Part shown: piece by piece, positions 27,989-63,900 of the stretch | How the letters are laid out: every line of letters begins with the position of its first letter | Position numbering within the stretch: position 1 is the stretch's first letter | Source of the DNA: an uncultured Gammaproteobacteria bacterium | GTDB lineage: Bacteria > Patescibacteriota > Patescibacteriia > UBA11705 | Reading direction: 5' to 3' | Assembly: GCA_964413735.1 (NCBI GenBank) | Contig: CAYPSS010000002.1 | Coordinates: 80,261-144,260, forward strand | DNA length: 64,000 nucleotides | The notes under the pieces: generated by a model | What the model saw: the letters and a program-made list of their open reading frames with translations, nothing else | Told to the model about the DNA's origin: nothing | The model's database searches: none | Position numbers and translations under genes: made by a program

Positions 27989-28399
27989 CTATGATTGTTT
28001 TTCAAATTCAATTTTTTCTTCATTAATCAACGCAATGTAACGATGCACTGTTAATTTAGGGAAACTACTCAAAATTTTCGCCGCCGCTGATTGTAAATCA
28101 CTTTGATATTTATTTTTTTCTTCTTCACCACCGCCCAAGATTTGATTACCACCATAAGCGCCACAATCCCAATGAGCGATTAAATACACCTCCGACATAC
28201 CATGAAGTTTTTGTGACAATTCCACTTGTTTGAGAGCGGTTGCTTGAGTTTCTTCATCTAAAAAGGTTTTTTGTGTTCCGGCGATGGAAAAAAGATCATA
28301 ATTATTTTCCAATCCCTGCTCCAATAAAAAATTCCTTACTGCGGTTTGAAAACGAAAATCCATACAACAAACCACCAAAGCCTGACAATTATGTGACAT
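27989..28399 (-). CDS. Mini beta-carbonic-anhydrase-like protein, paralog 2
   Basis: CMDFRFQ ... HWDCGAYGG. About 50% identical to 25412..25822 along the whole length. Confidence 0.5.
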   Translation of the reverse strand: MSHNCQALVVCCMDFRFQTAVRNFLLEQGLENNYDLFSIAGTQKTFLDEETQATALKQVELSQKLHGMSEVYLIAHWDCGAYGGNQILGGGEEEKNKYQSDLQSAAAKILSSFPKLTVHRYIALINEEKIEFEKQS

Positions 28400-47429: not shown

Positions 47430-49007
47430 TTAAAATAACGGCTGACCCGTCATATAACGGGGTGGCTCAATTTCCATTAATTTTAAAATCGTGGTCGGCA
47501 CATCACTTAGCAAACCAACTGGACGCAATAAACTCAAATCATTACCAATCAACTGTGATTCAGGGTTACTTTTCCCTTGGAAATCACGCCCGATGATAAT
47601 ACAAGGAACGGGATTCGTAGAATGATCTTTACTAATTTCTCCAGTTTGCAAATTACGTAATTCCTCACAATTACCATGGTCAGCGGTAATTATACAATTC
47701 CCTCCTTTTGACAACACCAAATCAATAATTTGTCCTATACAATAATCAACGGTTTCAATGGCTTTGATTGTGGCTTTCACATCTCCGGTATGCCCAACCA
47801 TATCCGGATTGGCAAAATTCACCAAGAAAAAGTCATGTTTTTCTTGCATAATGGTTTTGGTTAATTTAGCCGTCACTTCCAAAGCCGACATTTCTGGTTT
47901 ATCAGCATAACTGGCCACTCGCGGTGAAGGAATAACATCACGATCCTCATTTTTGAACGGATTTTCCTGACCGCCATTAAAAAAGAAAGTGACATGTGCA
48001 TATTTTTCCGTTTCCGAAATATGATATTGATTCAAACCAGCTTCACTGATAACTTTGGCCAAACATAAATCAATAGTTTCTTTTTCCATCACAATATCAA
48101 CCGGCATGCCTTTTTCATATTCCGTCATAGTCACAAATTTGAGATTTTGAAACGTTTGACGCGTAAATTTTTCAAACGGCTCGGTTACAAATGCATTGGT
48201 TAATTGACGCGCACGATCTGAACGATAATTAATAAAAATCACCGCATCATTGGATTCCACTTTAGCCACCGGATTACCCGCTTGCCCAATCACTACCGGT
48301 ACAAATTCTTCATCGTAAACTTTTTTTTCATATGATTGCTCAATAGCGACTAACGGATCATCAAAATAATTTTCCGCCTCACCCAAAGCAATTGCCTTAA
48401 AAGCTTTTTCCGTTCTTTCCCAATGATTATCACGATCCATGGCATAAAATCTTCCGGACAAAGTGGCGATTTTCCCGACTTTTATTTCTTTAGTTTTCTT
48501 GATCAATTCCGCAATAAATTCTTTGCCACCATTATATAAAGTATCTCGCCCATCCAAAAAACAATGCAAATAAACTTCATCAACCTTTTGTTTTTTGGCC
48601 ATTTCCAAAATCGCATAAGCATGTCTGATTGAGGAGTGGACTTTACCCTCACTCATTAAACCGAAAATATGCATTTTGGACTTATGCTTTTTCACATGGT
48701 CGAAAGCACCAATCAATTTTTCGTTTTCAAAAAATCGACCTTCGTTAATATAACGATCAATTCGCGGTAAATTCTGAAACAAAATTTTCCCGATTCCCAA
48801 ATTCATATGTCCCACTTCCGAATTCCCGATTTCCCCCCAAGACAAGCCCACTGATTCACCTGAAGCCAATAATGTAAATGACGGGTAATGCGTCAAATAA
48901 TTATCAAAGTTTTTTTTGTTTGCCAAAGATACACCATTACTGTCGCAAGCCGGTGCCACACCCAAACCATCTAAAACAATTAATACTGTTGGTTTTTTTA
49001 CTGCCAT
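47430..49007 (-). CDS. gpmI: 2,3-bisphosphoglycerate-independent phosphoglycerate mutase, copy 1
   Basis: VLIVLDGLGVAP, NSEVGHMNLGIG, and the C-terminal ADHGN motif. Length 525 aa. Confidence 0.85.
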   Translation of the reverse strand: MAVKKPTVLIVLDGLGVAPACDSNGVSLANKKNFDNYLTHYPSFTLLASGESVGLSWGEIGNSEVGHMNLGIGKILFQNLPRIDRYINEGRFFENEKLIGAFDHVKKHKSKMHIFGLMSEGKVHSSIRHAYAILEMAKKQKVDEVYLHCFLDGRDTLYNGGKEFIAELIKKTKEIKVGKIATLSGRFYAMDRDNHWERTEKAFKAIALGEAENYFDDPLVAIEQSYEKKVYDEEFVPVVIGQAGNPVAKVESNDAVIFINYRSDRARQLTNAFVTEPFEKFTRQTFQNLKFVTMTEYEKGMPVDIVMEKETIDLCLAKVISEAGLNQYHISETEKYAHVTFFFNGGQENPFKNEDRDVIPSPRVASYADKPEMSALEVTAKLTKTIMQEKHDFFLVNFANPDMVGHTGDVKATIKAIETVDYCIGQIIDLVLSKGGNCIITADHGNCEELRNLQTGEISKDHSTNPVPCIIIGRDFQGKSNPESQLIGNDLSLLRPVGLLSDVPTTILKLMEIEPPRYMTGQPLF

Positions 49008-49014
49008 ATAATTA

Positions 49015-50610
49015 CTATTTTTTTATTAAGCTTTTTCCCACCACATGGTTTGATTTATTCGGCAATTTAAGAAAATCATAAATTGTCGGAGCAATATCTC
49101 CCAAATTACCGTTTTTTCTTAATTTAATCTTTTTGTTTTTGTTATCGATCAAAATAAACGGCACCGGATTTTGGGTATGTTCAGTAAAAATTTCTCCGGT
49201 TTCCAGATCAATCATTTTTTCCGCATTACCATGATCAGCCGTCACAAACAAAACACCATTATTTTTCAAAACTGATCGACTTATTTCCCCCAAACATTTA
49301 TCAACATGTTCTACTGCTTTAATTGTCGCTTTCAGATCCCCAGTATGCCCCACCATATCCGGATTGGCAAAATTGGCAACAATAAAATCCGCTTTTTTCT
49401 GTTCAATATTTTTACAAATATATTGTGAAATTTTATAAGCGGACATTTCCGGTTTATCTTTGTAATTTTTGATTTTCGGCGACATGATACGAACACGTTT
49501 TTCATTATAAACCGGATCCGGATAACCACCATTTAAGAAATATGTAACATGAGCATATTTTTCCGATTCCGCAATATATAGCTGACGATATGAATTCATC
49601 ATAAACGGCATAGTAGCAACCTCATCAACACCCGGATAAGCGGTAATTAAGTTTTCCGATAAATCTGGCCCAAAATCAGTTAAAGCACAGAACAAAACAT
49701 CTTTAAGAATCTTGGATCTCTTAAAAGCGGTGGGATTTTTTTTATTAAAATCTTTTTGCGAAAAGCATTTTGCCAATTGTCGAGCTCGATCAGATCGTAA
49801 ATTGAAAAAAATAATCGCATCATGATCCTTAATTCTGGAATCATCAATTTCTTCCGCTATTCCATTAATTATACACGGCTCAATGTATTCATCAGTCAAA
49901 CCACGATTATAAGCTTCTTCAATCGCTAATTTATAATTTTGATAAATCTTGATATTTTTAGTGGAAATTAAACATTCATACGCCAAACGAGTTCGATCCC
50001 AATTTTTAGCTCGATCCATGGCAAAAAATCTACCCATTAAACTCGCGACTTTAATCTTAGTAGCACCGCTTGAACCATTATTTCCATTATTTATTTTTTT
50101 CATTAAATCAACCACAATGCGCATCGCAGAATGTTGCGGGGAATCACGACCATCGGTAAACAAATGTAAATATACTTCCGATATTTTATTTAAACGAGCC
50201 AGCCTTACTAAAGCCAATAAATGATTAAGAGAACTATGAGGACTTTCACCATCAGAAATCAAACCCATTAAATGCAAACGAGATTTTTTGGCCAATAAAT
50301 GATTTACAACATGTTTAAAAGCCATGTTATTAAAAAAAGATTTATCATCAATTGCTCGGTTAATAATCACACTATCTTGGAAAACAATGTGTCCGGCTCC
50401 AATATTCATATGTCCGGCTTCCGAATTTCCCGGCTGATTTTCCGACAAACCCACCTGGCCATTACTGGCATCCAACAATGTATGCGGAAAATTTTTCCAC
50501 AGTCGATCAAAATTGGGGGTCTTGGCCAAAGCCACCGCATTACCCTGACTTGGCGGAGCAACTCCCCAACCATCCAGAATCAATAATACTGCCGGTTGAT
50601 ATTTTTTCAT
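49015..50610 (-). CDS. gpmI: 2,3-bisphosphoglycerate-independent phosphoglycerate mutase, copy 2 (divergent tandem paralog)
   Basis: VLLILDGWGVAP, NSEAGHMNIGAG, ADHGN. About 40% identical to copy 1. Confidence 0.85.
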   Translation of the reverse strand: MKKYQPAVLLILDGWGVAPPSQGNAVALAKTPNFDRLWKNFPHTLLDASNGQVGLSENQPGNSEAGHMNIGAGHIVFQDSVIINRAIDDKSFFNNMAFKHVVNHLLAKKSRLHLMGLISDGESPHSSLNHLLALVRLARLNKISEVYLHLFTDGRDSPQHSAMRIVVDLMKKINNGNNGSSGATKIKVASLMGRFFAMDRAKNWDRTRLAYECLISTKNIKIYQNYKLAIEEAYNRGLTDEYIEPCIINGIAEEIDDSRIKDHDAIIFFNLRSDRARQLAKCFSQKDFNKKNPTAFKRSKILKDVLFCALTDFGPDLSENLITAYPGVDEVATMPFMMNSYRQLYIAESEKYAHVTYFLNGGYPDPVYNEKRVRIMSPKIKNYKDKPEMSAYKISQYICKNIEQKKADFIVANFANPDMVGHTGDLKATIKAVEHVDKCLGEISRSVLKNNGVLFVTADHGNAEKMIDLETGEIFTEHTQNPVPFILIDNKNKKIKLRKNGNLGDIAPTIYDFLKLPNKSNHVVGKSLIKK

Positions 50611-50611
50611 A

Positions 50612-51877
50612 TTAACAATTTTTTAATTCCAACTCAATCTCCATCAGGCGATTATATTTCGCGACTCGATCAGAGCGAGATAATGATCCAGTTTTAATAA
50701 AATCAGCATTAACCGCCACTGCTAAATCAGCAATAAAAGTATCACAAGTTTCACCAGAACGATGCGAAACACTTACTTTATAACCATTATTTTTCGCTAA
50801 ATAAATACTAGCAATTGTTTCCGTCAAAGTCCCGATTTGATTCACTTTTATCAAAATACCATTAGCCACACCATTTTCAATCCCATGGTGCAATCGATCA
50901 ACATTAGTCACAAACAAATCATCACCAATAATCGTCACTTTATCACCTAAAAATCCAGTAATTTTTGCCCAACCACCCCAATCATCTTCCGCCAAAGGAT
51001 CCTCAATGGAAATAATTGGATATTTAACGAGCCACTTATCTAAAATTTTAATCACTTGATCACCTGTAATTAAAGCTTTCATTTTTTTGTCCTCAAGTGA
51101 ATATTGTTTTTTCTTTTTGTCATAATACTCACTTAAAGCTAAATCCATAGCCAAAAAAGCGTCTTTCCCTGGACGATAGCCAGCGCGTTTAATTGCTTCA
51201 ATTATAAATTTCAATGCCTCTTCATTACTCTTTAAATTCGGCGCAAAGCCTCCTTCATCACCAACCAGTGTTTGATAACCCGCATCTTTTAACAAAACCT
51301 TTAAATGATGGAAAACTTCAGCTCCAATTCTAATTCGATTGGCCATATTACCAGCCACCGGCACAACCATCATTTCTTGAATGGTTAAAGAATTATCAGC
51401 GTGCTTACCACCATTAATAATGTTCATAGTTGGAATCGGCATTTGCCACTTTTTTTCTTCCAAACAATAAATATAGCGTAAATATTTATAAAGTGGCATC
51501 TTTAAACTCATTGCTCCGGCGCGTGCGACGGCCAAAGAAACTGATAAAATCGCATTCGCACCTAGTTTTGATTTATTTTCTGTCCCGTCAAGATCAAGCA
51601 ATAAGCGATCAATTTCTAATTGCTTAACCGCTTTCATCCCAATCAATCGTGGAGCGATTTTTTTATTAACATTATTAACCGCTTTCAAAACACCTTTACC
51701 TAAATATCTTTTTTTATCATTATCACGCAATTCAACCGCTTCATGTTCACCGGTTGAAGCTCCACTGGGAACGGCCGCTTTCGCCATAATTCCATTTTTC
51801 AATTCAATAGTAGTTTCAATTGTCGGATTACCACGTGAATCCAATATTTCTCGGGCAAAAACTTTTTTTATTGTCAT
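50612..51877 (-). CDS. eno: Enolase
   Basis: [24 protein letters not shown]... is the enolase signature. Length 421 aa. Confidence 0.95.
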
Positions 51878-51889
51878 ATTTTTAAAAAA

Positions 51890-53071
51890 TTATTTTTGTA
51901 AAACGAAAATTCCCGGTAATTCCTTACCTTCTAAAAATTCGAGCATTGCGCCTCCGCCAGTCGATATAAAACTGATTTTTTTTGCTACACTAGCCATGTT
52001 GACACTGGCAATGGTTTCTCCACCACCCACAACAGAAACCGCTTTATTGTTTTTTGTAATCATAGATAAGGTTTTCGCCAACATGACCGATGATTTTTCA
52101 AACGGTTTTTCATCAATCAAACCAAAAGGGCCACCCCAAACTAAAGTTTTGGCTTTTTTAATTTCTTGAGCAATATTTCTAATGGTTTCCATCCCCACAT
52201 CCAAAATTTGTTCATCGGCTTCGCAAATCATTTTTCCCCACTCAAGCTTTTGATATCTTTTTTTAGTATGATCATTTTTTTTCACCACCACAAAATCTTG
52301 CGGTACAATTACCCTATTTTGTGACAACTTTTTCGCTTGATTCAAATATTGTTCATCGAAAACTGAGCTCCCAATATTATAACCTCGCGCTTTTAAAATA
52401 GTATTAGCCACACCACCGCCAACAAAAATTTTATTATATTTTTTCAAAAACTGACTAATTACTCCGAATTTTGAGTCCAATTTTACTCCACCAATAAAAG
52501 CAAAAGCCGGTTTTTTCGGATTTCGGGCTTTAGAAAGAAAATTTATTTCATTAAGTAAATTCAAGCCCGCATAACCTGGAATAAAATTAACTATTCCAGT
52601 TAAAGAAGCGCCTTGACGATGACAAACCGCAAAAGCATCATTAACATATACATCAGCCATTGAAGCTAAATATTTGGCAAATTGAAGATCGTTTTTTTCT
52701 TCTCCGGCATTAAAACGCAAATTTTCCAACACGACTACCGATGAACGACTTTTTTTCACTTGACTGATTAATTTTTCATCAAACTTTTTCGAAACAAAAG
52801 AAATTGAAACGCCCTTCATTTTCTTTTTTAATAATGCCACTACCGGTTTAAGAGTGAATTTTTCATCCCACTGTCCTTCCGGCCGACCCAAATGCGTTCC
52901 AATTATAACTTTGCACTTATTTTTCAATAAAAATTTTATCGTAGGCAATGTTCGATCAATTCGATAATCTTCGAAAATTTTATTACCTTTGATCGCCACA
53001 TTAAAGTCTGCGCGTAAAAAAACCGTTTTATTTTTTAAATTTTTTACTTGTTTGATTGATTTTATTTTCAT
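51890..53071 (-). CDS. pgk: Phosphoglycerate kinase
   Basis: The N-terminal domain has VFLRADFNV and the C-terminal domain has GGGA(M/N). Length 393 aa. Confidence 0.9.
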   Translation of the reverse strand: MKIKSIKQVKNLKNKTVFLRADFNVAIKGNKIFEDYRIDRTLPTIKFLLKNKCKVIIGTHLGRPEGQWDEKFTLKPVVALLKKKMKGVSISFVSKKFDEKLISQVKKSRSSVVVLENLRFNAGEEKNDLQFAKYLASMADVYVNDAFAVCHRQGASLTGIVNFIPGYAGLNLLNEINFLSKARNPKKPAFAFIGGVKLDSKFGVISQFLKKYNKIFVGGGVANTILKARGYNIGSSVFDEQYLNQAKKLSQNRVIVPQDFVVVKKNDHTKKRYQKLEWGKMICEADEQILDVGMETIRNIAQEIKKAKTLVWGGPFGLIDEKPFEKSSVMLAKTLSMITKNNKAVSVVGGGETIASVNMASVAKKISFISTGGGAMLEFLEGKELPGIFVLQK

Positions 53072-53410: not shown

Positions 53411-53665
53411 TTATTCTCCTTCAATAGAAACTAATTTCCAATCCCCTCCAGCAACTTTTTCAATATTAATGTCCGCACCATTGATAATTGAATCCCGACT
53501 AAGCATTATTATGTTAAATTTCAAATTTTCTGCATCAATCGCCGCCCCATGTTCAATCACGGTTCCCAGTTCAATATTGATTTTGGTTACTTTTTTTAAT
53601 TTATTGTTTTCAGCTGATTCTAGAGCTAATTTATGAATCCGATCAGCCACATGTAAATCATGCAT
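53411..53665 (-). CDS. HypA-like [NiFe]-hydrogenase nickel-insertion protein lacking the zinc-finger segment
   Basis: MHDLHVADRIHKLALESAENNKLKKVTKINIELGTV...ENLKFNII parallels the HypA N-domain (MHE...KV..V.L.IG.LS.V..E.L.F.F). The C terminus VAGGDWKLVSIEGE parallels the HypA end (VADDGLQIRRIEIDQE). The intervening CxxC...CxxC region is absent, leaving 84 aa. Confidence 0.5.
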   Translation of the reverse strand: MHDLHVADRIHKLALESAENNKLKKVTKINIELGTVIEHGAAIDAENLKFNIIMLSRDSIINGADINIEKVAGGDWKLVSIEGE

Positions 53666-53808: not shown

Positions 53809-55680
53809 ATGATGAAAAATGCAATATCATTACTAATTGGTTTGCTCATTGCCATTAATTGTAATGAAAGCCATCCAAACAATTATTCCACTTCGAATTA
53901 TCCAACTCAATCAAAATCAGAAATTTATACTGAAAAATTAGCGGAGATTCATAGACTACAAAAAGCATTGAAAAGGAAAAAAAATCTATCTCAGTCAAAA
54001 ATTTCACAATTTCAAGAACAAATAGCTTCGGCTCGCATAGAAATTACTCAACAAATTGATCTTAATTCTAACAATAGTTACGAAAAAGCCATTAGCAATC
54101 AAATTGTCAATAACAACTTACAAGTAATTCAACGTGCTGATGCCTATATAGAAGTTTTCGAAGAAACACTTAGAAAAATCAAAGCTTCAGAAATTGAAAT
54201 CGTTCGTATAGAGAAATTTACAACAGTGGACTTAATTGCTCTTGAAGGAATTGAGAATAACAATGAATTTGATGACTTATTGAGAAAAATTAATCGCATG
54301 ATAAATGATATTCAACCAAATGCCGAAGAACTGGTCACCCCGAAAAATATAACCCCCAAAAAATCACTAAATGAAATCTGGAATAAATATTTCCATCATA
54401 CAACTCAATCAAAAACCTCGACAAAATACTCAAAAGTTCAACCTCCCGAACCAAAGATTGATTTAATCAAACAAAGACAAGTCTTATCAAATACCGATAT
54501 TTCTTCTCAATCGATTTACCCTAGTTATATCATATCGACAGGAATAATTAATTCCCCAAAGCAACTTAAATGGAATAAAAATAGTACTCATATTGCAGCG
54601 CTTTATGAAGATGGCATTTTAGTTTGGGCACCATTTAAAGAAAAAAATATCTTTATTCCGGCCGAAATGAAAACATTTGAAACTGGTAAAAATCAAAAAA
54701 TAAAGTTTTCAAAATTCAGATTAATTAATTGGAGTACGACAAACAATGATAATTTAATTGTTTTCAATAATCATGATGTGAATTTTAATATTTGGGATAT
54801 TTATTCTGGGAACAAATCAAACTCAATTCCAATAGAAGACTGCCGAATACCTGCAATAAAATTTTGGGATCAAAAATGGATTATACTACAATGCCAAGGC
54901 AATGCTAACAAAGGACTAATCTTAAAAGCTGATTCATTTCAAAAAGTTTTTAACATAAAAGGTGAAAAAGATTGGGAAAAGGCTACTTTTTTTTATGATG
55001 AGTCAAACAGACTGTTATTTAGTTATTATCACCAAAATACTATAGCAACAATAAACCCATGGATAAAAAGTGATGCCAACAATACAATCCGACTTTGTCG
55101 CAAACAAAATGAACCATTTTCAAATTCAACTGAATGGAAAAAGGACCAAGAAACAATTCAACCTTGTCCTGAACAACCCCATTTTGAATTTTCTATCACT
55201 AAAATCGATTGGATGGAATCAGGGAATTATTTGATTGCAAAAACAAATTTTGGAAAAATTTTAGTTTGGGACAATATACGAAATAGAATAATTGCTACTT
55301 ACACTGACTTTCTGAATAATTCACCACCAATCAAGTGGTCATCTATTAATAAATTGATAGCCATAATAGACTATTCCACTGTCAGATTCTTATCTTTGGA
55401 ATCAGGAAAAATAGATATTAAAATTAAAGAACCTGGAATCGTTAATTTTATTTGGCATCCGACAAAAGAGTTCTGGTATTTTGTTCAAACATGTAATGAT
55501 AATAAATGCCAATTAAAAGCAAAAAATTTGGTTCAAAACAAAGAAATAGTATTTTTGACTAACTCAAAGTCATCCACACAACAAGTTAGTACAATCACTA
55601 TTAGTAATAATCAACAACACTTAGTCGGGACATCTAATACAGGAGATATATTCGTATGGGATATTTCTATTTTACAATAA
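53809..55680 (+). CDS. Secreted or lipid-anchored protein: N-terminal coiled coil plus C-terminal WD40-like beta-propeller
   Basis: AAGGAGGG SD. Signal peptide MMKNAISLLIGLLIAINC. Recurrent WD-type blade endings (IWDIYSG, VWDNIRN, VWDISIL). Confidence 0.55.
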   Translation: MMKNAISLLIGLLIAINCNESHPNNYSTSNYPTQSKSEIYTEKLAEIHRLQKALKRKKNLSQSKISQFQEQIASARIEITQQIDLNSNNSYEKAISNQIVNNNLQVIQRADAYIEVFEETLRKIKASEIEIVRIEKFTTVDLIALEGIENNNEFDDLLRKINRMINDIQPNAEELVTPKNITPKKSLNEIWNKYFHHTTQSKTSTKYSKVQPPEPKIDLIKQRQVLSNTDISSQSIYPSYIISTGIINSPKQLKWNKNSTHIAALYEDGILVWAPFKEKNIFIPAEMKTFETGKNQKIKFSKFRLINWSTTNNDNLIVFNNHDVNFNIWDIYSGNKSNSIPIEDCRIPAIKFWDQKWIILQCQGNANKGLILKADSFQKVFNIKGEKDWEKATFFYDESNRLLFSYYHQNTIATINPWIKSDANNTIRLCRKQNEPFSNSTEWKKDQETIQPCPEQPHFEFSITKIDWMESGNYLIAKTNFGKILVWDNIRNRIIATYTDFLNNSPPIKWSSINKLIAIIDYSTVRFLSLESGKIDIKIKEPGIVNFIWHPTKEFWYFVQTCNDNKCQLKAKNLVQNKEIVFLTNSKSSTQQVSTITISNNQQHLVGTSNTGDIFVWDISILQ

Positions 55681-55809: not shown

Positions 55810-56631
55810 ATGAATAGAAACAAACAAATTTTTTGGGGAGTGTTTTTTGCTGGTTTGGCAGTAATTCTATTGATTGGTTTAATGAAATTCAGTAATATCC
55901 TCGCCTTCCTGATGATCCTGCCGTGGCTAGCCAACCAATTGGTAGAAAAAACCGGAATGAATATTTGGCTCGCCCGAGCCATTGCCACTATCCCCACAAT
56001 TTTGCTTCTTGTTGGTTTAAGCATGTCAATGTCATATTTCCCTGCTTTCCAGAAGGAATTCCCCTTCTTACGCTTTCAGAAAATCAAACGAATTTGGGGC
56101 TATGCTCTTTTAACCACTCTATTCATCGGTTATTCAATCACCATGTTTGCGATGGATGATGCCCAACTCTTTGATCCAAAAACCGGCCATGCTAAGAAAT
56201 GCCTTGCCTTAGGAACCACTGACTACGAAGAAATTAATTGCGATTGGGATTTTCATCCGGTAACTGGAAACCCAGTCATCAAAGATCGAGCCCAAGTTAA
56301 AGCGATTTTCACGGCCAAACAAACCTCTCCTCATGATCCCGGTCCCAGCAAAAAAATCATCAATAATGGCCAATTGCGTTTCTTTGACAGTGCCGGTAAC
56401 CCTCTAGTCTGGTACTATGAATATGAAGATGGCCGGATTGAACTTTTTGATCAACCGGGAAAACATCCTCAATGGAATACAGATTTAATCGCCATTAATC
56501 CCGCCATCGTAAAAAAGTTACTGAATTATCGTGATTCACCACAACCGGGAAATAAAATTATTTTCAACCAAACCAACAATGCCAATCCATTAATCGAATT
56601 ACGTGATTACTTACTCAAATTACATCAGTAA
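55810..56631 (+). CDS. Membrane protein (3 N-terminal TM helices) with a C-terminal soluble domain
   Basis: AAAGGAGG SD. Hydrophobic N terminus. No motif recognised. Confidence 0.5.
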   Translation: MNRNKQIFWGVFFAGLAVILLIGLMKFSNILAFLMILPWLANQLVEKTGMNIWLARAIATIPTILLLVGLSMSMSYFPAFQKEFPFLRFQKIKRIWGYALLTTLFIGYSITMFAMDDAQLFDPKTGHAKKCLALGTTDYEEINCDWDFHPVTGNPVIKDRAQVKAIFTAKQTSPHDPGPSKKIINNGQLRFFDSAGNPLVWYYEYEDGRIELFDQPGKHPQWNTDLIAINPAIVKKLLNYRDSPQPGNKIIFNQTNNANPLIELRDYLLKLHQ

Positions 56632-56632
56632 A

Positions 56633-56662
56633 ACAAAACAGCACCAAGTGCTGTTTTTTCAA
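56633..56662. terminator. Bidirectional hairpin terminator between the convergent genes
   Basis: AAAACAGCAC-CAAG-TGCTGTTTTTT. Confidence 0.55.
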
Positions 56663-56677
56663 TATATTTTTTATAAA

Positions 56678-57973
56678 TTAATGCGTAGCACAACTGATAC
56701 ACGGATCATACGCCCGAATCAAAGTTTTAATCATTAATTTTTGTTTTTCATCTGACAAATTTTTTATTTGGGGTAATAATTTAACCAAATCAAACTCAAT
56801 ATTTGCCAAAAACATGGCTGTCGGCGTAATAATATTCGCATTAACCACTACTCCGTCACGATTTAATTCATAATAATGATACAAAGTTCCTCGTGGCGCT
56901 TCTATCGCCCCCACTCCTTTTCCAGGATTAGGCTTGAACTTAGTAAATAATTTCGGTTGCTTAATTTTCAAATATTTCGCCATTAGCTTTTGCGCTTCTT
57001 CAAAAGAATGAACCAATTCAACCACTTGTGCCAAGTTATTATAAAAAGAATTATAACATGGTAATTTTACCTTCAAACTATCCCAAATACCTTTTGCAAC
57101 CGGATTAAGCTGAAGATAACTATTGTTAATTCGTGCCAAAGCGCCGACCATATAAGTTCGCCCACGATGTTTCACTCGTTTAACCGCTTCACCAACCTCA
57201 TATTGTTCTTCAAAATCATAAAAATAATTATGAATCGGAATACGTTCCTTCAAATCACTGGAATACAAATTTCCGGAATAAAAAGCATATTCTCTTTTAT
57301 TTACCAAGGAAATATAATCCGTAGGATTCTCAAAGTCCGGCATGGTTGAATGTTTTTTAACGAAAGCCACTAAACGCAAAGCTTTGGGAATAATCTGTTC
57401 CAATTCATCGTACATTTTTTGTAATTCTTTTTTATCTGGTTCTACTTTGAATCCACCGACCACACTATTAATCGGATGCGTGGTCCGACCACCCACCAAA
57501 TCACCCAATCTGATTGACCAATCATGAACTTCTAGAGCTAAAGCCACTTCTTTGGGATATTTTTTTACTAAATCAAAATTATTGCTCACTCCGATAAAAT
57601 CAGGAAATGACAAAAATACCACATGCAACGCGTGACTATGAATAATTTGCGCTAAATTCAAAATTTTTCGGAGAATAATCGCGTCATCGGTTGGTACCAC
57701 ATTAAGCGCGTGTTCCAAAGCCTTGATTGCGCCTAAATTATGAACAATCGGACACACCCCACAAATTCGTGACGTGATAATTGGCACGTCATAATAACTG
57801 CGATTCAAAACAATCCCCTCCATTAATCGTGCCCCTTCCAAAGTCATCACTCGCGCACTGGCAATATCACCATTTTGCAAAGTACCTTCAAAACCCAAAT
57901 GGCCTTCAGTTTTCCCAATATGATCAATTTTAATGGTTTTCATAAGTAAATTATGGCAAATAAATAAATCCAA
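56678..57973 (-). CDS. hydA: [NiFe]-hydrogenase large (alpha) subunit, group 3-type, ending at the C-terminal His with no extension
   Basis: N-terminal Ni-Fe ligand motif RICGVCPIVH. C-terminal DPCISCATH is followed directly by the stop codon (TAA at 56678-56680). Confidence 0.85.
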   Translation of the reverse strand: MDLFICHNLLMKTIKIDHIGKTEGHLGFEGTLQNGDIASARVMTLEGARLMEGIVLNRSYYDVPIITSRICGVCPIVHNLGAIKALEHALNVVPTDDAIILRKILNLAQIIHSHALHVVFLSFPDFIGVSNNFDLVKKYPKEVALALEVHDWSIRLGDLVGGRTTHPINSVVGGFKVEPDKKELQKMYDELEQIIPKALRLVAFVKKHSTMPDFENPTDYISLVNKREYAFYSGNLYSSDLKERIPIHNYFYDFEEQYEVGEAVKRVKHRGRTYMVGALARINNSYLQLNPVAKGIWDSLKVKLPCYNSFYNNLAQVVELVHSFEEAQKLMAKYLKIKQPKLFTKFKPNPGKGVGAIEAPRGTLYHYYELNRDGVVVNANIITPTAMFLANIEFDLVKLLPQIKNLSDEKQKLMIKTLIRAYDPCISCATH

Positions 57974-59078
57974 GATCTAAATTTAATTGCTCAATTTTTT
58001 CACTAACTAATTTTTTTAATTCAGATTCCCGACACGGATAATTGGAAACTACTGTTTGCGATTGAACATCAACCGTCAATCTATCATTTACACAAGCCAG
58101 CGAATTACCAAATGAATTAATTTTATAAATTGCTTCCGCTGGCAAAGTCGAAACAATTATTTGATTCAAAATATTATTCGATAAATCATACACATATAAT
58201 GGACTGGGTCCCAATAACAAATTACCATTGTCATAAAAAATACTCTTGATATTTTTCGGCATTAAATTTCTAGGAATAATGACTTGAGTGGCTCCGGTCT
58301 CGTAATTAACAGCATAAATTTCTTCATACACATTATATTGATAATCAGGCGTTGGTTTGTGAACCCCAATGTAAACTTCTGTTGTTCCCAAAGCAATAAC
58401 CGATTCTCCATCACCCATCAACGACTCAACTTGAATAATTCTATTCACTTCATTTTCATTATTCATCCAATGCAAAATTTCTGATGCATATCCGGCATCT
58501 CCCATATAATTATGCAATACATAGCCATTATCAACCTTAGTGATATTACCGGCCGCTTGATCAGTAAGAAAAATCGGTTTTTTATTATCAACCTTCAAAT
58601 CAATATAATACATTAAATTAGGATTCATATATTCCGCCACACCGAAAAATAATTTATCACCAATAACCTTCATAAATGAAATCCCCAAATTTGCCGTCGA
58701 GTTCTTAGTGTATTTACTATCAATATCAGCTAAACTGAAAATGGTTTGTTTTTGCTTACTTTCAATATCATACGAATAAATTTCCGCATTATTACCATAA
58801 GCATCTGCCAAATATAAATTGTTTTCATGTTTAATAATATGTCCGTAATCATTATTAAAAGTATGCACGATGACTAATTCACCATGTCGGTTGTCATATA
58901 ATGTTTTGTGTTGCAAAGTAAAACTATTAAGAGTCGCTTCCTGATAAATTTGACTGTTTTTCTCTTGACCATTCAGTAACCAGGCGGAAAATAAACCAAC
59001 AAACAGTGAACAAAAAATCGCGCAAACCACCACTATAATGAAATACCGACTTTGTAAAAAAATGGAAATTTTTTTCAT
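57951..59078 (-). CDS. Membrane-anchored hypothetical protein (375 aa) inserted between the hydrogenase delta and alpha genes
   Basis: N-terminal TM helix (FIIVVVCAIFCSLFVGLFSAWLL) and a large beta-rich extracytoplasmic domain. Overlaps hydA by 23 nt, so it is translationally coupled. Confidence 0.5.
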   Translation of the reverse strand: MKKISIFLQSRYFIIVVVCAIFCSLFVGLFSAWLLNGQEKNSQIYQEATLNSFTLQHKTLYDNRHGELVIVHTFNNDYGHIIKHENNLYLADAYGNNAEIYSYDIESKQKQTIFSLADIDSKYTKNSTANLGISFMKVIGDKLFFGVAEYMNPNLMYYIDLKVDNKKPIFLTDQAAGNITKVDNGYVLHNYMGDAGYASEILHWMNNENEVNRIIQVESLMGDGESVIALGTTEVYIGVHKPTPDYQYNVYEEIYAVNYETGATQVIIPRNLMPKNIKSIFYDNGNLLLGPSPLYVYDLSNNILNQIIVSTLPAEAIYKINSFGNSLACVNDRLTVDVQSQTVVSNYPCRESELKKLVSEKIEQLNLDLGFIYLP

Positions 59079-59083
59079 ATTAT

Positions 59084-59836
59084 TTATTTATTGATAAATT
59101 CTTTAATGGCAAACATCTCCAACACCTTATTAATTTGTTTTTCATTCCAACCATTATTATTAACCGCATTTTTCCAATTAACAATTGCCGGTTTTTTTAA
59201 TAATCCACGACAACCCCAACAAGCTTGTTTACTCTTGAGACAAATTGCATTGCATCCACCTTGAATAATCGGTCCCAAACAAATTTCACCTTTTTGCAAC
59301 AAACACTCATAACCATTAGTCATACATTCAAAACAAACCGGATTTTGTTTTATTTTCGGGACTTTCCCTACCACCAAGGAATAAATAAAACGGAGAATTT
59401 CCTCCTTAATAATCGGACAGGTCGGTAAATTAAGATCAACTTTCACATATTCCGTCAAAGGTTTAATTGGCGGATTATCAAGCTTTTTATCACCGGAATA
59501 AATATGCTCCATGATTTTTTGTGAATCTTGATAATTTTTCAAATGATAAATACCGCCCAAATGAGCACAAGAGCCACAAGCCACCAAATATTTGGTATTA
59601 CTCCTGATTTTTTTTAGATTAATAATATTTTCTTTTGTTACCGGACTACCCTCCACAAAAACCACATCTAATTTTTGCTCACTAAAAAAATAATCATCTT
59701 CAAAAAGACGAAATTCCACAATATCGATTTTATCTTTTAATTCAACAAATCTTTCTCGCAAACCTAAAAGCTCCACATAGCAACCCTCACAACTGGTCAA
59801 TGAGACAAAGGCGAATTTAAGCTTTTTTTGCACCAT
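59084..59836 (-). CDS. hydD: [NiFe]-hydrogenase small (delta) subunit
   Basis: Proximal-cluster Cys pattern SLTSCEGCYVELL, ...ACGSCAHLGG..., plus further Cys clusters (CFECMTNGYEC, CLGP...GGCNAIC, CWGC). Confidence 0.8.
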   Translation of the reverse strand: MVQKKLKFAFVSLTSCEGCYVELLGLRERFVELKDKIDIVEFRLFEDDYFFSEQKLDVVFVEGSPVTKENIINLKKIRSNTKYLVACGSCAHLGGIYHLKNYQDSQKIMEHIYSGDKKLDNPPIKPLTEYVKVDLNLPTCPIIKEEILRFIYSLVVGKVPKIKQNPVCFECMTNGYECLLQKGEICLGPIIQGGCNAICLKSKQACWGCRGLLKKPAIVNWKNAVNNNGWNEKQINKVLEMFAIKEFINK

Positions 59837-60290
59837 AATTTATTAAGATATCAATTAATTGCTCCGCTTTTTGAGTGGAAATAAAATATTTTTTTTGATC
59901 ATTTTTATCAATAAACTGAATTCCTACGCCTCCCTGAGCCACAAAACCCATAACTTTATCACGACTAAACCGTAAACCATAACCGCCAAACTTCAAAAAA
60001 GAAACCTTCTGAAATTCCAACTTCTCAATATTCTTAATCCAAATTCTTTTTTTGAATAAACCGAAATTTACCAATATCTTTTGTTCATCAACTACAATCT
60101 TCAGATAGCTAAAATTAACAATCGTAAAAATTAAAATCAAACAAATTAATCCCAGCAACCAAAATGGCGGATTTTCTTCGGGTATTGACGACGGAAAAAT
60201 TAAAAGATAAATCATAAAAACCAATACAACCAGACTGATCAAAACAAAAATAAACGGGATATAAACTTTTTCTTCAAAAATATAATTCAT
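59817..60290 (-). CDS. Bacterial PH-domain (bPH_2/YdbT-like) membrane protein inserted between the hydrogenase gamma and delta genes
   Basis: Two TM helices are followed by an 80-aa soluble domain, the architecture of DUF304/bPH_2. Overlaps neighbours on both sides. Confidence 0.4.
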   Translation of the reverse strand: MNYIFEEKVYIPFIFVLISLVVLVFMIYLLIFPSSIPEENPPFWLLGLICLILIFTIVNFSYLKIVVDEQKILVNFGLFKKRIWIKNIEKLEFQKVSFLKFGGYGLRFSRDKVMGFVAQGGVGIQFIDKNDQKKYFISTQKAEQLIDILINYGAKKA

Positions 60291-61102
60291 ATATCAATAT
60301 GTTCTTTACCAAATTTCTTTAATTGTTCATGTGTGAAAACCGGGCCATCCGTGCAAGTATAAACCGGACCGCAAACACAATGCTGACACTGACCGGTACC
60401 GCAATACATTCGTCGTTCCAAAGAAAAATATATTTTATCTGACGAAATGCCACGTTCATTCAAAACCTTGGCCACAAATTTATACATTGGTTCAGGTCCG
60501 CAACAAAACACCATCGCATTAGGCAATAATTTCACCTTAACCAATAAATCGGTTATATATCCCTGAGAGTTTGCTAATACCTGATGGTTACCTTGTTCTA
60601 ATACCAAATATGTTTCACTTTTTTTCTGCCACTTAGGCCAATTGTTTCCAAAAACCATAGTTTCTTGGCTTTTACAACCCATGAATATTTGCATTTTAAC
60701 ATCTGCTCGATCAATATTTTGCTCAATTACTGATTTCAATGGAATAAAGCCACACCCTCCACCAACAATAATCACATTACCATTTACTTCCGGAAAACCA
60801 TTACCAAAAGGACCTCTAATATAAAGGCTATCACCTTTTTTCAAAGAATTAATTTTTTCTGACAATTCTCCGGCCGTTCGCACACAAATTTCAAAGTAAT
60901 CTTGACTTTTCCCGGCGGCTGAAGACAAAGTAAAGGGAGCATCACCATAACCCGGCAAACCAACCATCAAAAACTGACCGGCAATAAAATGAAAATCTTT
61001 TTGAATTTTAGTATCAAATTTCAAACGAAAACAATTTATCAAATCATTTTCTTTTTTCACGCTTATGATTATCGCCTTTTGAGGCAAAAAACTGTTTTTC
61101 AT
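60287..61102 (-). CDS. hydG: Hydrogenase gamma subunit (FAD/NAD(P)-binding oxidoreductase with a C-terminal 2Fe-2S, PyrK-like)
   Basis: FNR-like fold motifs (FHFIAGQFLMV, RGPFGNGF, IIVGGGCGFIPLKSV). C-terminal Cys cluster CGTGQCQHCVC. Confidence 0.75.
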   Translation of the reverse strand: MKNSFLPQKAIIISVKKENDLINCFRLKFDTKIQKDFHFIAGQFLMVGLPGYGDAPFTLSSAAGKSQDYFEICVRTAGELSEKINSLKKGDSLYIRGPFGNGFPEVNGNVIIVGGGCGFIPLKSVIEQNIDRADVKMQIFMGCKSQETMVFGNNWPKWQKKSETYLVLEQGNHQVLANSQGYITDLLVKVKLLPNAMVFCCGPEPMYKFVAKVLNERGISSDKIYFSLERRMYCGTGQCQHCVCGPVYTCTDGPVFTHEQLKKFGKEHIDI

Positions 61103-61167
61103 AACGGATCATGTGTCATATTACATTTAACATGTTTCATATTCGGTCAAGCATCGTTAAACTATAT

Positions 61168-61524
61168 TTAATAAATACCATAAGACAATTCTTTGATGCA
61201 GGATTTAGTTGAATAATGGATATATTCTTTTGTAGAATATTTTCCTCCTCGCAAAAAACAAACAAATCTATTTGTAATTTTACAAAAAGATGCCTCAACT
61301 CCAATCCCCACTAACTTATTTTCAATTTCTCCTCCGACCAGAAAACAAGCCGGTTGGAAATTAAACCTATTATTATATAAAATTTTTGGATCAGGCGTTG
61401 GGTCAATCGAAATAAAATCACCCGTTTGTAAATCAATAAAACATGGAGAAAGTATTACTAAGGATAAATAAGATATAAACAACACAAAAAGAGCAATTAT
61501 TACGATCTTCTTATTTCTTTTCAT
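61168..61524 (-). CDS. Small membrane-anchored hypothetical protein inserted between the hydrogenase beta and gamma genes
   Basis: Signal/TM segment KIVIIALFVLFISYLSLVIL, then a 90-aa Cys-containing domain. Confidence 0.4.
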   Translation of the reverse strand: MKRNKKIVIIALFVLFISYLSLVILSPCFIDLQTGDFISIDPTPDPKILYNNRFNFQPACFLVGGEIENKLVGIGVEASFCKITNRFVCFLRGGKYSTKEYIHYSTKSCIKELSYGIY

Positions 61525-62500
61525 ATTTTTTAATTAAATCTTGCAAATTCTTAGCAATATTTATTCCAACCGGACAAACTTTAAAACAACGCATACAACT
61601 GACACACCCGGGGAAATTAAATTCCTCGGGAATTCGAACAAATTTATGATAATACCAAAAATAAATTTTCTTTTTTATCGTATCAAGCGGTTCATGACCA
61701 CCGGCCATTTCGGAAAAATCATTATAAAAGCATGAAGACCATTGCCTTTGACGAACAATCTTATCTTTTTGCGGAATATCAATTGTATCAAAACAAAAAC
61801 AAGTAGGACAAGCCATAGTACAACGACCGCAAGCAATGCATTTGGCATTCAATTCATCCCAAATTTCTTTGGAAAAACTATCTTTTACCCGTTGATAAAA
61901 ATCTCTTAACCTTAACGGTTGGCCCTTTTCCGGCACATAACCCACAAATTCAATATGCTCATAATCCAAAATATTATTATCTTCCAAAATATTTTGGCCC
62001 TTTTCCGACCCGGAGAAAACATTAAACTTACCGTTTTTTTGTCGTTCTATGAAAATATCAAAACTCCGATGTTCCAAAATATCTTCTTCAAATTTCTCAT
62101 GCCAAATTTTATATTTACGAAAATCATTCTCAATCCCATTACTGTAACCCACAACCAATAAATTACGACGGCGACGCAAATAGTATGAATCTTTGGCAAA
62201 AACTTGCTCAAACAAACTAAATGCTTCCAAATCCATAATATTCATACCCCAAGCTGTTATCAACTGATTTCCTTGAATAATTTCTTTTGCTTTACCCTGA
62301 TTATCAAATTCAACCAAATTTTCACGAACAGGTAAAAATAAATTTTTAAATGTATTTTCCGGCACCACACCGGACCAATCGATTTTCTGCAAATTATCCA
62401 CCGCAGAAACTAAAAGCCGGCCATTGTTTTTAACCGGTGCATAAATAATTGATTTCTCAAACAAATTATCTAATAGATTTTTTAATTCTACTTGTTTCAT
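61511..62500 (-). CDS. hydB: Hydrogenase beta subunit (4Fe-4S ferredoxin-type)
   Basis: Two Fe-S Cys motifs: CIACGRCTMACPTCFCFDT and CVSCMRCFKVCPVG. Confidence 0.75.
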   Translation of the reverse strand: MKQVELKNLLDNLFEKSIIYAPVKNNGRLLVSAVDNLQKIDWSGVVPENTFKNLFLPVRENLVEFDNQGKAKEIIQGNQLITAWGMNIMDLEAFSLFEQVFAKDSYYLRRRRNLLVVGYSNGIENDFRKYKIWHEKFEEDILEHRSFDIFIERQKNGKFNVFSGSEKGQNILEDNNILDYEHIEFVGYVPEKGQPLRLRDFYQRVKDSFSKEIWDELNAKCIACGRCTMACPTCFCFDTIDIPQKDKIVRQRQWSSCFYNDFSEMAGGHEPLDTIKKKIYFWYYHKFVRIPEEFNFPGCVSCMRCFKVCPVGINIAKNLQDLIKKYEKK

Positions 62501-62571
62501 ACCTTCCCATTATACAAAATTTCTCCTGTTGTGTAAACAAAAAACAAGCTGTTCCCAGCCTGTTTTTGTAT

Positions 62572-62870: not shown

Positions 62871-63353
62871 TCAATCAATCATTGGTTTTCCGAATTGCGA
62901 CTGGCATTCAACCGAATAAGGCACCCAAAAACTTAATTTCATTTCTTGTCGATTCTCACTTCTTTTTTTGAATATTCTTTTTATTTTATGAAGATTAGCA
63001 TCCACCAAGCATTTTCGACAATTTGGATCAAGATTGACAATATCAATTTCAATTCGAACATCAGTCGCTAAACACTCCGATTTTTCACTACACCATCCAC
63101 CGCTGCAACTTCTAGCCGTAAAATAAACAGCACAATATTCTTCAGCTCTTGCTTTAGCTATAGCTTCCATACAAATATATACTTTTTTCGAGAAAGTTTT
63201 TATTTCACCTGGCACACAATAATCAGATGAATCATTGGTAATTTTTTGTTTTTTTTCTGAAGGAACAATGACCGTGGCACACGATACAAAAGCCACTAAA
63301 CAACAAAGGAAAAAAGCTACACGAGACATTCGCACCCTCCGATGAGAGTCCAA
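62871..63353 (-). CDS. Secreted or lipoprotein Cys-rich small protein, tandem paralog 1
   Basis: Signal peptide with lipobox-like FVSC. 12 Cys. The C-terminal motif REMKLSFWVP is shared with the paralog. Confidence 0.5.
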   Translation of the reverse strand: MDSHRRVRMSRVAFFLCCLVAFVSCATVIVPSEKKQKITNDSSDYCVPGEIKTFSKKVYICMEAIAKARAEEYCAVYFTARSCSGGWCSEKSECLATDVRIEIDIVNLDPNCRKCLVDANLHKIKRIFKKRSENRQEMKLSFWVPYSVECQSQFGKPMID

Positions 63354-63441: not shown

Positions 63442-63900
63442 TCACTTGTTCACCTTTTCCAATCCCCAATACTGATCCTGACACTGTTTTTTAATCAATG
63501 GCACCCAAAAACTCATTTTCATTTCACGACCCAAATAATGCATTTTGTTTAGCATTAAAAATAACAACATTTGGTCTTGCTGATCCAAACAATCAGGGCA
63601 AGGAGGTTCCCAAGAAACAATTATCGGACGCTGACGTGTCAACTTCAAAGCACAAGTAAAAATCGGAAAACATTGATCACCCAAACAACTTTGTTTCACT
63701 GATAAAATCTCACAATACTCTTCATTAATCATTTTTCCCAAAACAACCATGCAAAAACACTCGTGATCATTGATTTTCTTTGTTTCTCCTAATTCACACA
63801 ACAAATCAAGATGCTCCGGCTGTGATGTTTTCTTGTCCAAAACATCGGTAGACGCACAACCGAAAATGATTACCCCAAAAACTATAATAATCCGAGTCAT
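63442..63900 (-). CDS. Secreted or lipoprotein Cys-rich small protein, tandem paralog 2
   Basis: Signal peptide with IIFGC. Cys-rich. The C terminus has REMKMSFWVPL. Confidence 0.5.
   Translation of the reverse strand: MTRIIIVFGVIIFGCASTDVLDKKTSQPEHLDLLCELGETKKINDHECFCMVVLGKMINEEYCEILSVKQSCLGDQCFPIFTCALKLTRQRPIIVSWEPPCPDCLDQQDQMLLFLMLNKMHYLGREMKMSFWVPLIKKQCQDQYWGLEKVNK

Follow-up and report, generated by a model that had tools for sequence, protein, structure and literature searches.

A Patescibacterial group 3b-type [NiFe]-hydrogenase operon with a conserved candidate accessory gene, variable insertion slots and an extension-less large subunit

The operon and the class of its enzyme

We analysed a stretch of 64,000 nucleotides (nt) from an uncultured bacterium that is named Gammaproteobacteria in NCBI GenBank and placed in the Patescibacteriota (Patescibacteriia; UBA11705) by GTDB; this stretch, positions 80,261 to 144,260 of contig CAYPSS010000002.1 (assembly GCA_964413735.1), is referred to as the window. 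The subject is a [NiFe]-hydrogenase operon in which the four catalytic genes are interleaved with three additional genes, here called ins1, ins2 and ins3. Seven open reading frames (ORFs), all of them real, lie on the minus strand between positions 56678 and 62500, and a re-reading of the DNA confirmed their positions and order, as well as the stop codon that immediately follows the DPCISCATH motif, in agreement with an earlier description of the same letters (the sequence-only reading). The order hydB-hydG-hydD-hydA, which had been read as beta-gamma-delta-alpha, was borne out by both Pfam and NCBIfam. In our overall interpretation, to which we give a probability of roughly 0.7, the locus would be a hyd1-type group 3b operon with ins2 as an accessory gene, ins1 and ins3 as cargo, and a streamlined maturation that combines an extension-less HydA with a small form of HypA (mini-HypA). 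The operon has the following features (aa, amino acids), with the junctions read from the DNA:

61511..62500, minus strand: hydB, beta subunit of 329 aa, AsrA-like, with CIACGRCTMACPTC and CVSCMRCFKVCPV as its two 4Fe-4S motifs
61168..61524, minus strand: ins1, 118 aa, between hydB and hydG
60287..61102, minus strand: hydG, gamma (diaphorase) subunit of 271 aa, binding FAD/NAD(P) and containing a 2Fe-2S motif
59817..60290, minus strand: ins2, 157 aa, between hydG and hydD
59084..59836, minus strand: hydD, delta (small) subunit, 250 aa, Oxidored_q6
57951..59078, minus strand: ins3, 375 aa, between hydD and hydA
56678..57943, minus strand: hydA, alpha (large) subunit, 421 aa, NiFeSe_Hases, with RICGVCPIVH and DPCISCATH
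hydB/ins1 junction: 14-nt overlap
ins1/hydG junction: 65-nt gap
hydG/ins2 junction: 4-nt overlap, ATGA
ins2/hydD junction: 20-nt overlap
hydD/ins3 junction: 5-nt gap
ins3/hydA junction: 7-nt gap, counted from the hydA ATG at 57943
62509..62537, minus strand: promoter-like site TTTACA-17 nt-TATAAT, 9 nt 5' of the hydB ATG
56635..56657, minus strand: terminator-like hairpin with a 10-bp stem and a T-run, 21 nt 3' of the hydA stop

The statement that every insert overlaps or abuts its neighbours was correct for the short overlaps and gaps and incorrect for ins1 and hydG, which are separated by 65 nt. The TTG at 57973, which the ORF-finder list gave as the start of hydA, had to be replaced; the true start is almost certainly the ATG at 57943, because MKTIKI, or a near variant of it, opens almost all of the closest homologs at that position. 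The promoter-like site has 11 of 12 consensus matches, the best score in the region, and is followed by a Shine-Dalgarno-like element, GGGAAGG, before the hydB ATG. The hairpin behind hydA, which is shared with a convergent gene for a 273-aa protein, is likewise the best in the region, the operon-internal terminator-like matches being weaker (5-8-bp stems). Since the best sites of both kinds flank the seven genes, these appear to form one transcription unit of ~5.9 kb, which would run from the promoter at 62537 to the hairpin at 56635.

The class assignment in the sequence-only reading, a group 3b-like enzyme and no member of a membrane-bound group, was upheld. The best PDB match of HydA was the alpha subunit of Pyrococcus furiosus sulfhydrogenase I together with HyhL of Thermococcus kodakarensis (E=5e-65, full-length alignment), and the group 3b references scored 223 bits compared with 155 for 3c, at most 128 for 3a, 112 for 3d and at most 92 for group 1. 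The NCBIfam ranking agrees, as sulfhydrogenase I/II equivalogs were the top matches for all four subunits. HydA matched sulfhyd_HydA and ShyA (E about 1e-71), and HydD matched ShyD (4e-45) and HydD (8e-44) besides Pfam Oxidored_q6 (E=1e-21). For HydB, whose identity across the related loci was 46-69%, the matches were Pfam Fer4_22 (E=3e-28) and NCBIfam sulfhyd_HydB (2e-30), ShyB (2e-28) and AsrA (2e-27); for HydG they were NAD_binding_1, FAD_binding_6 and DHODB_Fe-S_bind in Pfam and the cytochrome-c3 hydrogenase gamma, AsrB and ShyC models in NCBIfam (E=1e-47 to 1e-51). All of the subunits scored far under the NCBIfam equivalog cut-offs (242 bits versus 880), and the enzyme is therefore a distant relative or a subclade with respect to the archaeal enzymes.

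The composition is nevertheless that of group 3b: an alpha and a delta subunit, an AsrA-like beta subunit with Fe-S motifs and an AsrB-like gamma subunit with FAD/NAD(P)-binding and 2Fe-2S motifs, and a HydA translation that contains both L1 (SRICGVCPIVH) and L2 (DPCISCATH). P. furiosus HydBGDA and T. kodakarensis Hyh (PDB 9E15, 9NEZ and 5YXY) agree with the locus in the four subunits, in their beta-gamma-delta-alpha order, in the AsrA/AsrB-like diaphorase half and in the L1 RxCGxCxxxH and L2 DPCxxCxxH motifs; their operons are contiguous, whereas the present one has three extra cistrons. A scan of the genome contigs with HydA returned four loci. The best 120 HydA homologs were metagenomic, with 45-100% identity, and those with a named source came from Parcubacteria, Patescibacteria, Kuenenbacteria, Falkowbacteria, Kerfeldbacteria, Buchananbacteria and Komeilibacteria, with one labelled Bipolaricaulota.

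This distribution is in line with the study by Jaffe et al. (2020, BMC Biol; PMC7304191), in which group 3b clades specific to the Candidate Phyla Radiation (CPR) are defined, the 'hyd1' form with beta, gamma and a small subunit of ~250 aa is set beside a hyd2 form of ~164 aa, and the genomic context is described as variable, the gamma and beta genes sometimes lying away from the immediate 5' side of the small-subunit gene. Complexes of group 3b enzymes from Berkelbacteria and Moranbacteria are modelled by Valentin-Alvarado et al. (2024; PMC10811913). With these systems the locus shares its Patescibacterial (CPR) origin, beta and gamma genes in the same operon and a small subunit of the expected size (HydD, 250 aa), and it fits a CPR/Patescibacteria-specific 'hyd1'-type group 3b NAD(P)-linked [NiFe]-hydrogenase operon as judged by gene content, that is, a known kind. 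The parts of the two papers at hand make no mention of a gene for a PH domain with two transmembrane (TM) segments, of cassette swapping, of a missing HydA extension or of a Zn-less HypA. In the literature that we searched, a conserved PH-domain membrane gene, cassette swapping at the junctions between strains and an extension-less HydA together with a mini-HypA are undescribed. Group 3b enzymes are the main predicted H2-handling enzymes of the CPR and appear in most CPR metabolic reconstructions; telling the conserved genes from the passengers prevents the over-interpretation of CPR hydrogenase loci and nominates one candidate accessory.

The genes at the three junctions

Hydropathy analysis confirmed one N-terminal TM segment each for ins1 and ins3 and two for ins2. 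Of the three inserts, ins2 proved to be conserved, being found in 10 of 12 loci, whereas ins1 is swapped at ~99% DNA identity and ins3 is limited to its own species cluster.

The description of ins2 as a bPH-like protein with two TM segments was accurate as to the segments and the modelled PH fold; the protein would act in the manner of a bPH protein, although it belongs to no curated bPH family. The AlphaFold2 model, built on a 72-sequence alignment, has a predicted local distance difference test (pLDDT) score of 95.7 and consists of a short N-terminal strand, TM helices at residues 13-31 and 43-59, and a domain at residues 62-151 in which a seven-strand sandwich is capped by a C-terminal helix, as in the PH fold. 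The protein reaches no Pfam bPH gathering threshold (bPH_4, 17.7 bits versus 22.9), and the weak matches among the 72 family members were to bPH_4 (12), bPH_5 (6) and DUF3093 (8). From the bPH membrane proteins (bPH_2/bPH_4/bPH_5, YdbS/YdbT-like; 3B77) ins2 is thus set apart by a score under the gathering threshold and by its place in a hydrogenase operon; the literature search returned no paper linking bPH proteins to hydrogenases. The PH domain is predicted to be cytoplasmic, on the same side as the hydrogenase, because of the positive-inside rule: the domain has 18 lysine and arginine (K/R) residues and the inter-helix loop has 0. In the model, the N-terminal strand and the PH domain are both placed on the N-terminal side of the TM hairpin.

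A member of the ins2 family, detected with the family profile, lies directly 5' of hydD in 10 of the 12 independent Patescibacterial loci (the window and 11 others, HydA identity 48-100%; the contigs L019 and L020 of two sister strains come in addition). The ten are the window, L005/6, L008, L001, L010, L016, L017, L009, L012/13 and the P0123 contig, and L008 keeps two tandem copies in place. Overlaps between the start and stop codons of ins2 and its neighbours are frequent, the 4-nt and 20-nt overlaps being identical in the window and L005, and zero substitutions in ins2 were found between the sister strains. A word-indexed homology search had found three ins2 relatives, and a locus search with one ins2 alignment had found L009 only. 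Because ins2 is retained at its exact position, often overlapping its neighbours, across most of the clade, we slightly favour the reading that it is a functional accessory with some link to the enzyme. It is a conserved fifth gene of the operon and a candidate membrane partner, whose most likely role would be to dock or organise the otherwise soluble HydBGDA at the membrane, with the cytoplasmic PH domain as the contact. That it tethers the hydrogenase at the membrane is a tentative proposal, which we hold to be rather unlikely.

The behaviour of ins1 was revealed by L019 and L020, two independent Logan assemblies from different Sequence Read Archive (SRA) runs. On either side of the following segment, both match the window with ~99% DNA identity for more than 8 kb (blastn), and their HydA protein is identical:

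61104..61554, minus strand: strain-variable cassette, 451 nt, in which the final ~44 nt of hydB are followed by ins1 and the 65-nt spacer

No alignment with L019 or L020 crosses this cassette, which is replaced in them by 515 nt that encode a 132-aa 23S_rRNA_IVP/bAvd protein, and its right-hand breakpoint falls exactly 1 nt short of the hydG ATG. The exchange at ~99% DNA identity is a clean example of tiny genomes sampling surface proteins or selfish genes inside expressed operons. The ins1 ORF is probably real, since a 121-codon open frame like its own was reached in only 4 of 5000 shuffles of the 451-nt cassette. The protein has one N-terminal TM (or signal) segment at residues 7-25 and a small Cys-containing ectodomain, and with four K/R before the segment and none after it, an N-in/C-out orientation is predicted. 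We found no Pfam, NCBIfam or PHROGs family for it (Pfam to E<=1), and a homolog was absent from every other related locus, ins1 being present on the source contig only. It is a swappable cassette, and would be strain-specific cargo and no hydrogenase subunit.

The second variable gene, ins3, had been described as TM-anchored and beta-rich; a single TM segment (residues 13-31) was supported by hydropathy, and the beta-richness appears only in a low-confidence single-sequence model (pLDDT 41). Three K/R before the segment and one after it again predict N-in/C-out, with an extracytoplasmic part of ~340 aa; in ins1 and ins3 alike, the sequence behind the TM segment is acidic or neutral. Among 5.8 billion protein clusters ins3 matches itself alone, and no family match was obtained in Pfam (to E<=1), NCBIfam or PHROGs. 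Four intact variants with 97-100% identity were found, all in its own species-level cluster. Compared with L019, no other part of the operon diverges nearly as much as ins3 (27 differences versus 0-4 in the hyd genes), with 12 synonymous and 11 non-synonymous codon changes and a ratio of non-synonymous to synonymous polymorphism (pN/pS) of about 0.23. It is a fast-evolving, species-restricted orphan under purifying selection and is predicted to be surface-exposed. The pattern [hydrophobic]-Y-x-[YV]-[DN] recurs at residues 100, 254 and 294, a hint of beta-propeller-like blades that does not amount to evidence.

Neither ins1 nor ins3 has a paralog within the window, and neither stands out as foreign in composition (GC 0.29-0.32 versus 0.33-0.37 in the hyd genes). 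When att-like direct or inverted repeats were sought at the flanks of both cassettes, AT-rich low-complexity matches were the only yield, and these were judged to be chance (e.g., D7, at the two start codons).

It had been suggested that the three inserts jointly are co-translated membrane subunits, which tether the 3b hydrogenase or couple it to a new partner. In favour of this, every insert has an N-terminal hydrophobic segment, and all three run in the same direction within what appears to be a single transcription unit, overlapping their neighbours or separated from them by short gaps. However, the replacement of ins1 by an IVP/bAvd gene in strains with an identical HydA largely refutes it, and no homolog of ins1 or ins3 was found in the other Patescibacterial loci examined, so that neither of them shows the conserved co-occurrence with the catalytic genes that is expected of a hydrogenase subunit. 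In addition, the bulk of both proteins is predicted by the positive-inside rule to be outside the cell, and contact with the cytoplasmic enzyme would therefore be through one helix at most; in relatives, the slots hold unrelated soluble proteins (NUDIX, GIY-YIG and Ldh_2) or nothing. The suggestion thus fails for ins1 and ins3, and we consider three joint membrane subunits to be very improbable. Both genes would instead be passengers, coding for exported or surface proteins that exploit the transcription of the operon.

Across the related loci, the operon junctions act as insertion slots with very different turnover, the hydG-hydD slot being stable (ins2) and the hydB-hydG and hydD-hydA slots fast. 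In the other loci with an occupied hydB-hydG junction, the occupant is an IVP/bAvd gene, a fragment of EamA or a short ORF on the opposite strand. The hydD-hydA slot of relatives is empty or holds an orphan of 95, 115 or 330 aa, an IVP protein, NUDIX or SemiSWEET with Ldh_2, and the slots of the other loci overall contain GIY-YIG, IVP/bAvd, NUDIX, EamA, HypC, SemiSWEET with Ldh_2 or nothing; one GIY-YIG gene also lies in the hydG-hydD slot of L008. The family search of the slot proteins of relatives gave no meaningful match (Pfam E<=1, PHROGs). In the outgroup L003 (37% HydA identity) the four genes form a contiguous B-G-D-A operon. Genes for 23S_rRNA_IVP/bAvd four-helix bundles recur in the B-G, G-D, D-A and post-hydA slots of different lineages and behave like mobile passengers:

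L001:7577-7966; L008:9390-9770; L010:8332-8685; L019:4418-4816; P0004 and P0123 contigs: 23S_rRNA_IVP/bAvd genes

Separately, the hydG-hydD slot of the distant loci holds a gene for an EamA-type 10-TM transporter together with one for a protein of ~255-275 aa (DUF6390 in L018), sometimes with hypC. This conserved pair is a second recurrent association of a membrane protein with this junction:

L012:4103-5778; L014:2177-3896; L018:2056-3703: EamA gene and gene for the ~255-275-aa protein

Several observations weigh against our overall interpretation, and most of them concern ins2. Two members of the clade, L014 (Kerfeldbacteria) and L018 (Buchananbacteria), have no ins2 and carry EamA, DUF6390-like and other genes in the hydG-hydD slot. 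The protein diverges faster than the enzyme, with ~41% identity in L005 versus 61-76% for the catalytic subunits. Its family is large, with 875 representatives (E<=1e-3) that include long multi-repeat proteins, and is probably present outside hydrogenase operons as well. Beyond ins2, the promoter and terminator are consensus matches only. Moreover, within the 64 kb of the window, no hypB, hypC, hypD, hypE, hypF or endopeptidase gene turned up when the likely genes among ORFs of at least 100 aa were scanned with Pfam and all ORFs from 40 aa upwards were checked with motifs and tblastn, the latter checks covering hypC, hypD, hypE and an endopeptidase.

The points on ins2, together with the tolerance of the operon for unrelated passengers in every slot, favour the explanation that ins2 is a passenger too, namely an old, fixed membrane protein of a bPH-like membrane-stress or housekeeping type, unrelated to H2, beside an ordinary soluble 3b enzyme. 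This explanation is hard to reconcile with a position 5' of hydD that is kept at HydA identities down to 48% as against a neighbouring slot that turns over at 99% nucleotide identity, with the conserved coupling-type overlaps with both hydG and hydD, or with the tandem duplication retained in L008. We therefore judge a passenger role of ins2 to be unlikely, while taking it more seriously than any other rival considered here.

The C-terminus of HydA and the maturation genes

HydA ends with DPCISCATH, after which TAA follows at 56678-56680, as the sequence-only reading had noted. Its view of the terminal His as a Ni ligand was mistaken. The Ni ligands are four Cys, whereas the terminal His marks the site behind which the maturation endopeptidase normally cuts. 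Of the 120 best HydA homologs, 119 have the equivalent His as their last residue, and the remaining one, which ends with DLCISCAVH, has no tail either; the extension is also missing in L009, L012, L014, L016, L017, L018 and the sister strains. Tails were found in the outgroups, namely seven residues (IIRLDAP) in L003 (37% identity) and ~26 in L004 of Anaerolineaceae (29%). The precursors in P. furiosus and T. kodakarensis have 428 aa with the His at 424; as these archetypes have only four extra residues, the loss is small in length, though uniform across the clade. An extension-less HydA is an ancestral feature of the Patescibacterial clade as a whole.

A false stop that truncates HydA, or a chimeric contig that creates the interleaving, would be a technical explanation, and the source is a metagenome-assembled contig. 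However, the two independent Logan assemblies reproduce hydG-ins2-hydD-ins3-hydA at ~99% with an identical HydA and stop, and the 119 homologs have the same terminus. A read error, which had been named as a possible cause, does not account for the stop; both the sequencing error and the chimeric assembly were rejected on these grounds, and we regard an artefact as having a negligible probability.

Extension-less large subunits have precedents. According to Hartmann et al. (2020; PMC7294309), groups 2b, 2d, 4c, 4e and 4g naturally have no extension, group 3b not being listed, and such enzymes still obtain the canonical cofactor from the Hyp machinery. Like HydA of the window, HoxC/HupV (2b/2d), CooH (4c), Ech (4e) and the 4g enzymes end at the His or Arg of DPCxxCxx[HR], with no endopeptidase step possible; the listed enzymes are sensory or membrane-bound and energy-converting, whereas the present one belongs to a cytoplasmic NAD(P)-linked 3b clade. 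The literature searched held no account of an extension-less 3b enzyme, of CPR 3b maturation or of CPR HypA.

The hypA gene near the operon is also reduced. The gene and its orthologs in related loci are:

53411..53665, minus strand: mini-HypA, 84 aa, MHD N-terminus, zero Cys, without the Zn-finger domain
L001:9738-9992; L002:6654-6908; L008:9967-10221; L010:8754-9014: mini-HypA orthologs
L012:8257-8511; L014:8264-8521; L016:8265-8525; L018:9143-9397: mini-HypA orthologs

Mini-HypA keeps its synteny with the operon in all relatives. It aligns with positions 1-68 of the 112 in the Pfam HypA profile (E=1e-8; 35.1 bits, cut-off 28.9), and matches TIGR00100 with E=2e-10 at 40.9 bits, which is under the cut-off of 88.1. 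A profile of nine mini-HypA orthologs matched residues 1-64 of T. kodakarensis HypA only, i.e., the Ni domain (E=5e-6). The Met-His-acidic N-terminus and the Ni domain of HypA are thus present, and the Zn domain with its two CxxC motifs is absent. The orthologs have 84-86 aa; MHD is invariant in nine and E38-H39 is invariant, and the number of Cys is 0 or 1 in the 7 of 7 orthologs counted (a single one has one) and zero in two further aligned sequences. T. kodakarensis HypA (PDB 3A43 and 5YXY) shares the M-H-acidic Ni domain and a gene beside the hydrogenase but has 139 aa, whereas mini-HypA, with 84 aa, lacks the whole Zn finger and its Cys. As far as the aligned orthologs indicate, the Zn-finger domain is missing from HypA throughout the clade.

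Taken together, the extension-less HydA and the conserved mini-HypA without a Zn domain indicate a streamlined, endopeptidase-independent maturation, which would proceed without proteolysis as in the regulatory (2b/2d) and the group 4c/4e enzymes. If this is true, a cytoplasmic NAD(P)-linked enzyme would join the few [NiFe]-hydrogenases that are independent of a protease. The extension-less 3b enzyme could then be an attractive minimal system for heterologous expression and for tests of the purpose of the C-terminal extension and of the HypA Zn domain. A more far-reaching version, in which a dedicated ins2 ('HydX') docks the 3b enzyme at the membrane in most Patescibacteria and maturation is minimal throughout the clade (no extension, no endopeptidase and a HypA with the Ni domain only), is in our opinion doubtful; on this version, nature would provide a minimal maturation system for an NAD(P)-linked hydrogenase.

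The same features may be read as decay, with the interruptions of the operon and the missing extension as signs of a loss of function in a reduced genome. The lack of hypBCDEF and an endopeptidase gene in the window, the absent Zn domain of HypA and the low scores against the equivalog models would be compatible with this. On the other hand, the four Cys ligands of the Ni-Fe site and the Fe-S motifs are intact, the four hyd genes are intact in every locus, and hydA has three and two synonymous and no non-synonymous differences from the two sister strains; the HydBGDA gene set is under purifying selection. The uniformity of the extension-less state over 45-100% identity indicates selection, enzymes that naturally have no extension are active in other groups (PMC7294309), and hypC, which was not found in the window, is located in or beside the operon in several relatives. 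A decaying, non-functional hydrogenase is accordingly a very poor explanation, and the preferred reading remains that of a functional hyd1-type 3b enzyme with a streamlined maturation.

Neighbouring genes and the rest of the window

The arrangement hypA-pgk-eno-ipgm-ipgm follows the operon in nearly every Patescibacterial locus, sometimes with other genes interposed. In the window, it is completed by:

47430-53071, minus strand: pgk, eno and a tandem pair of iPGM paralogs (525 and 531 aa), 3' of the hydrogenase and hypA

This proximity of the hydrogenase and lower-glycolysis genes fits a disposal of glycolytic reductant as H2. The enzyme would re-oxidise the NAD(P)H that comes from the adjacent pathway and give H2, as the CPR literature proposes.

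A convergent pair of genes lies between hydA and hypA. The product of the gene next to hydA has two N-terminal TM segments and gave no meaningful family match (Pfam E<=1, PHROGs), and that of the other is a WD40-like beta-propeller. The pair, with paralog expansions, is also found 3' of hydA in L005-7 (76% HydA identity) and L002 (54%), while hypA is directly 3' of hydA in the other loci:

55810-56631, plus strand: 273-aa convergent protein
53809-55680, plus strand: 623-aa convergent protein
L005:9314-13617; L002:2150-6499: the pair in relatives

On the 5' side of the operon are two paralogs with ~31% identity, in each of which a signal or TM segment is joined to a body rich in Cys; they share an MSFWVP motif and belong to no family. 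In L019, a 613-nt insertion with a Y1_Tnp (IS200/IS605-type) transposase gene is located between the two:

62871-63353, minus strand: first Cys-rich paralog
63442-63900, minus strand: second Cys-rich paralog
L019:1863-2475: insertion with Y1_Tnp, corresponding to window position ~63403

The remaining window holds the ordinary housekeeping genes of a small genome, such as aminoacyl-tRNA synthetases, MreBCD/PBP2 and F1Fo ATP synthase. Two paralogs of Pro_CA_2 (putative carbonic anhydrase) flank a gene for a sensor histidine kinase, and a further gene encodes a protein of the Translin family, which is unusual in a bacterial genome, as the family is mostly eukaryotic and archaeal:

25412-25822, minus strand: Pro_CA_2 paralog, 136 aa
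25883-27886, minus strand: sensor histidine kinase, 667 aa, with SBP_bac_3 periplasmic and PAS domains
27989-28399, minus strand: Pro_CA_2 paralog, 136 aa
42623-43198, minus strand: Translin-family match (PF01997, E=7e-17), 191 aa

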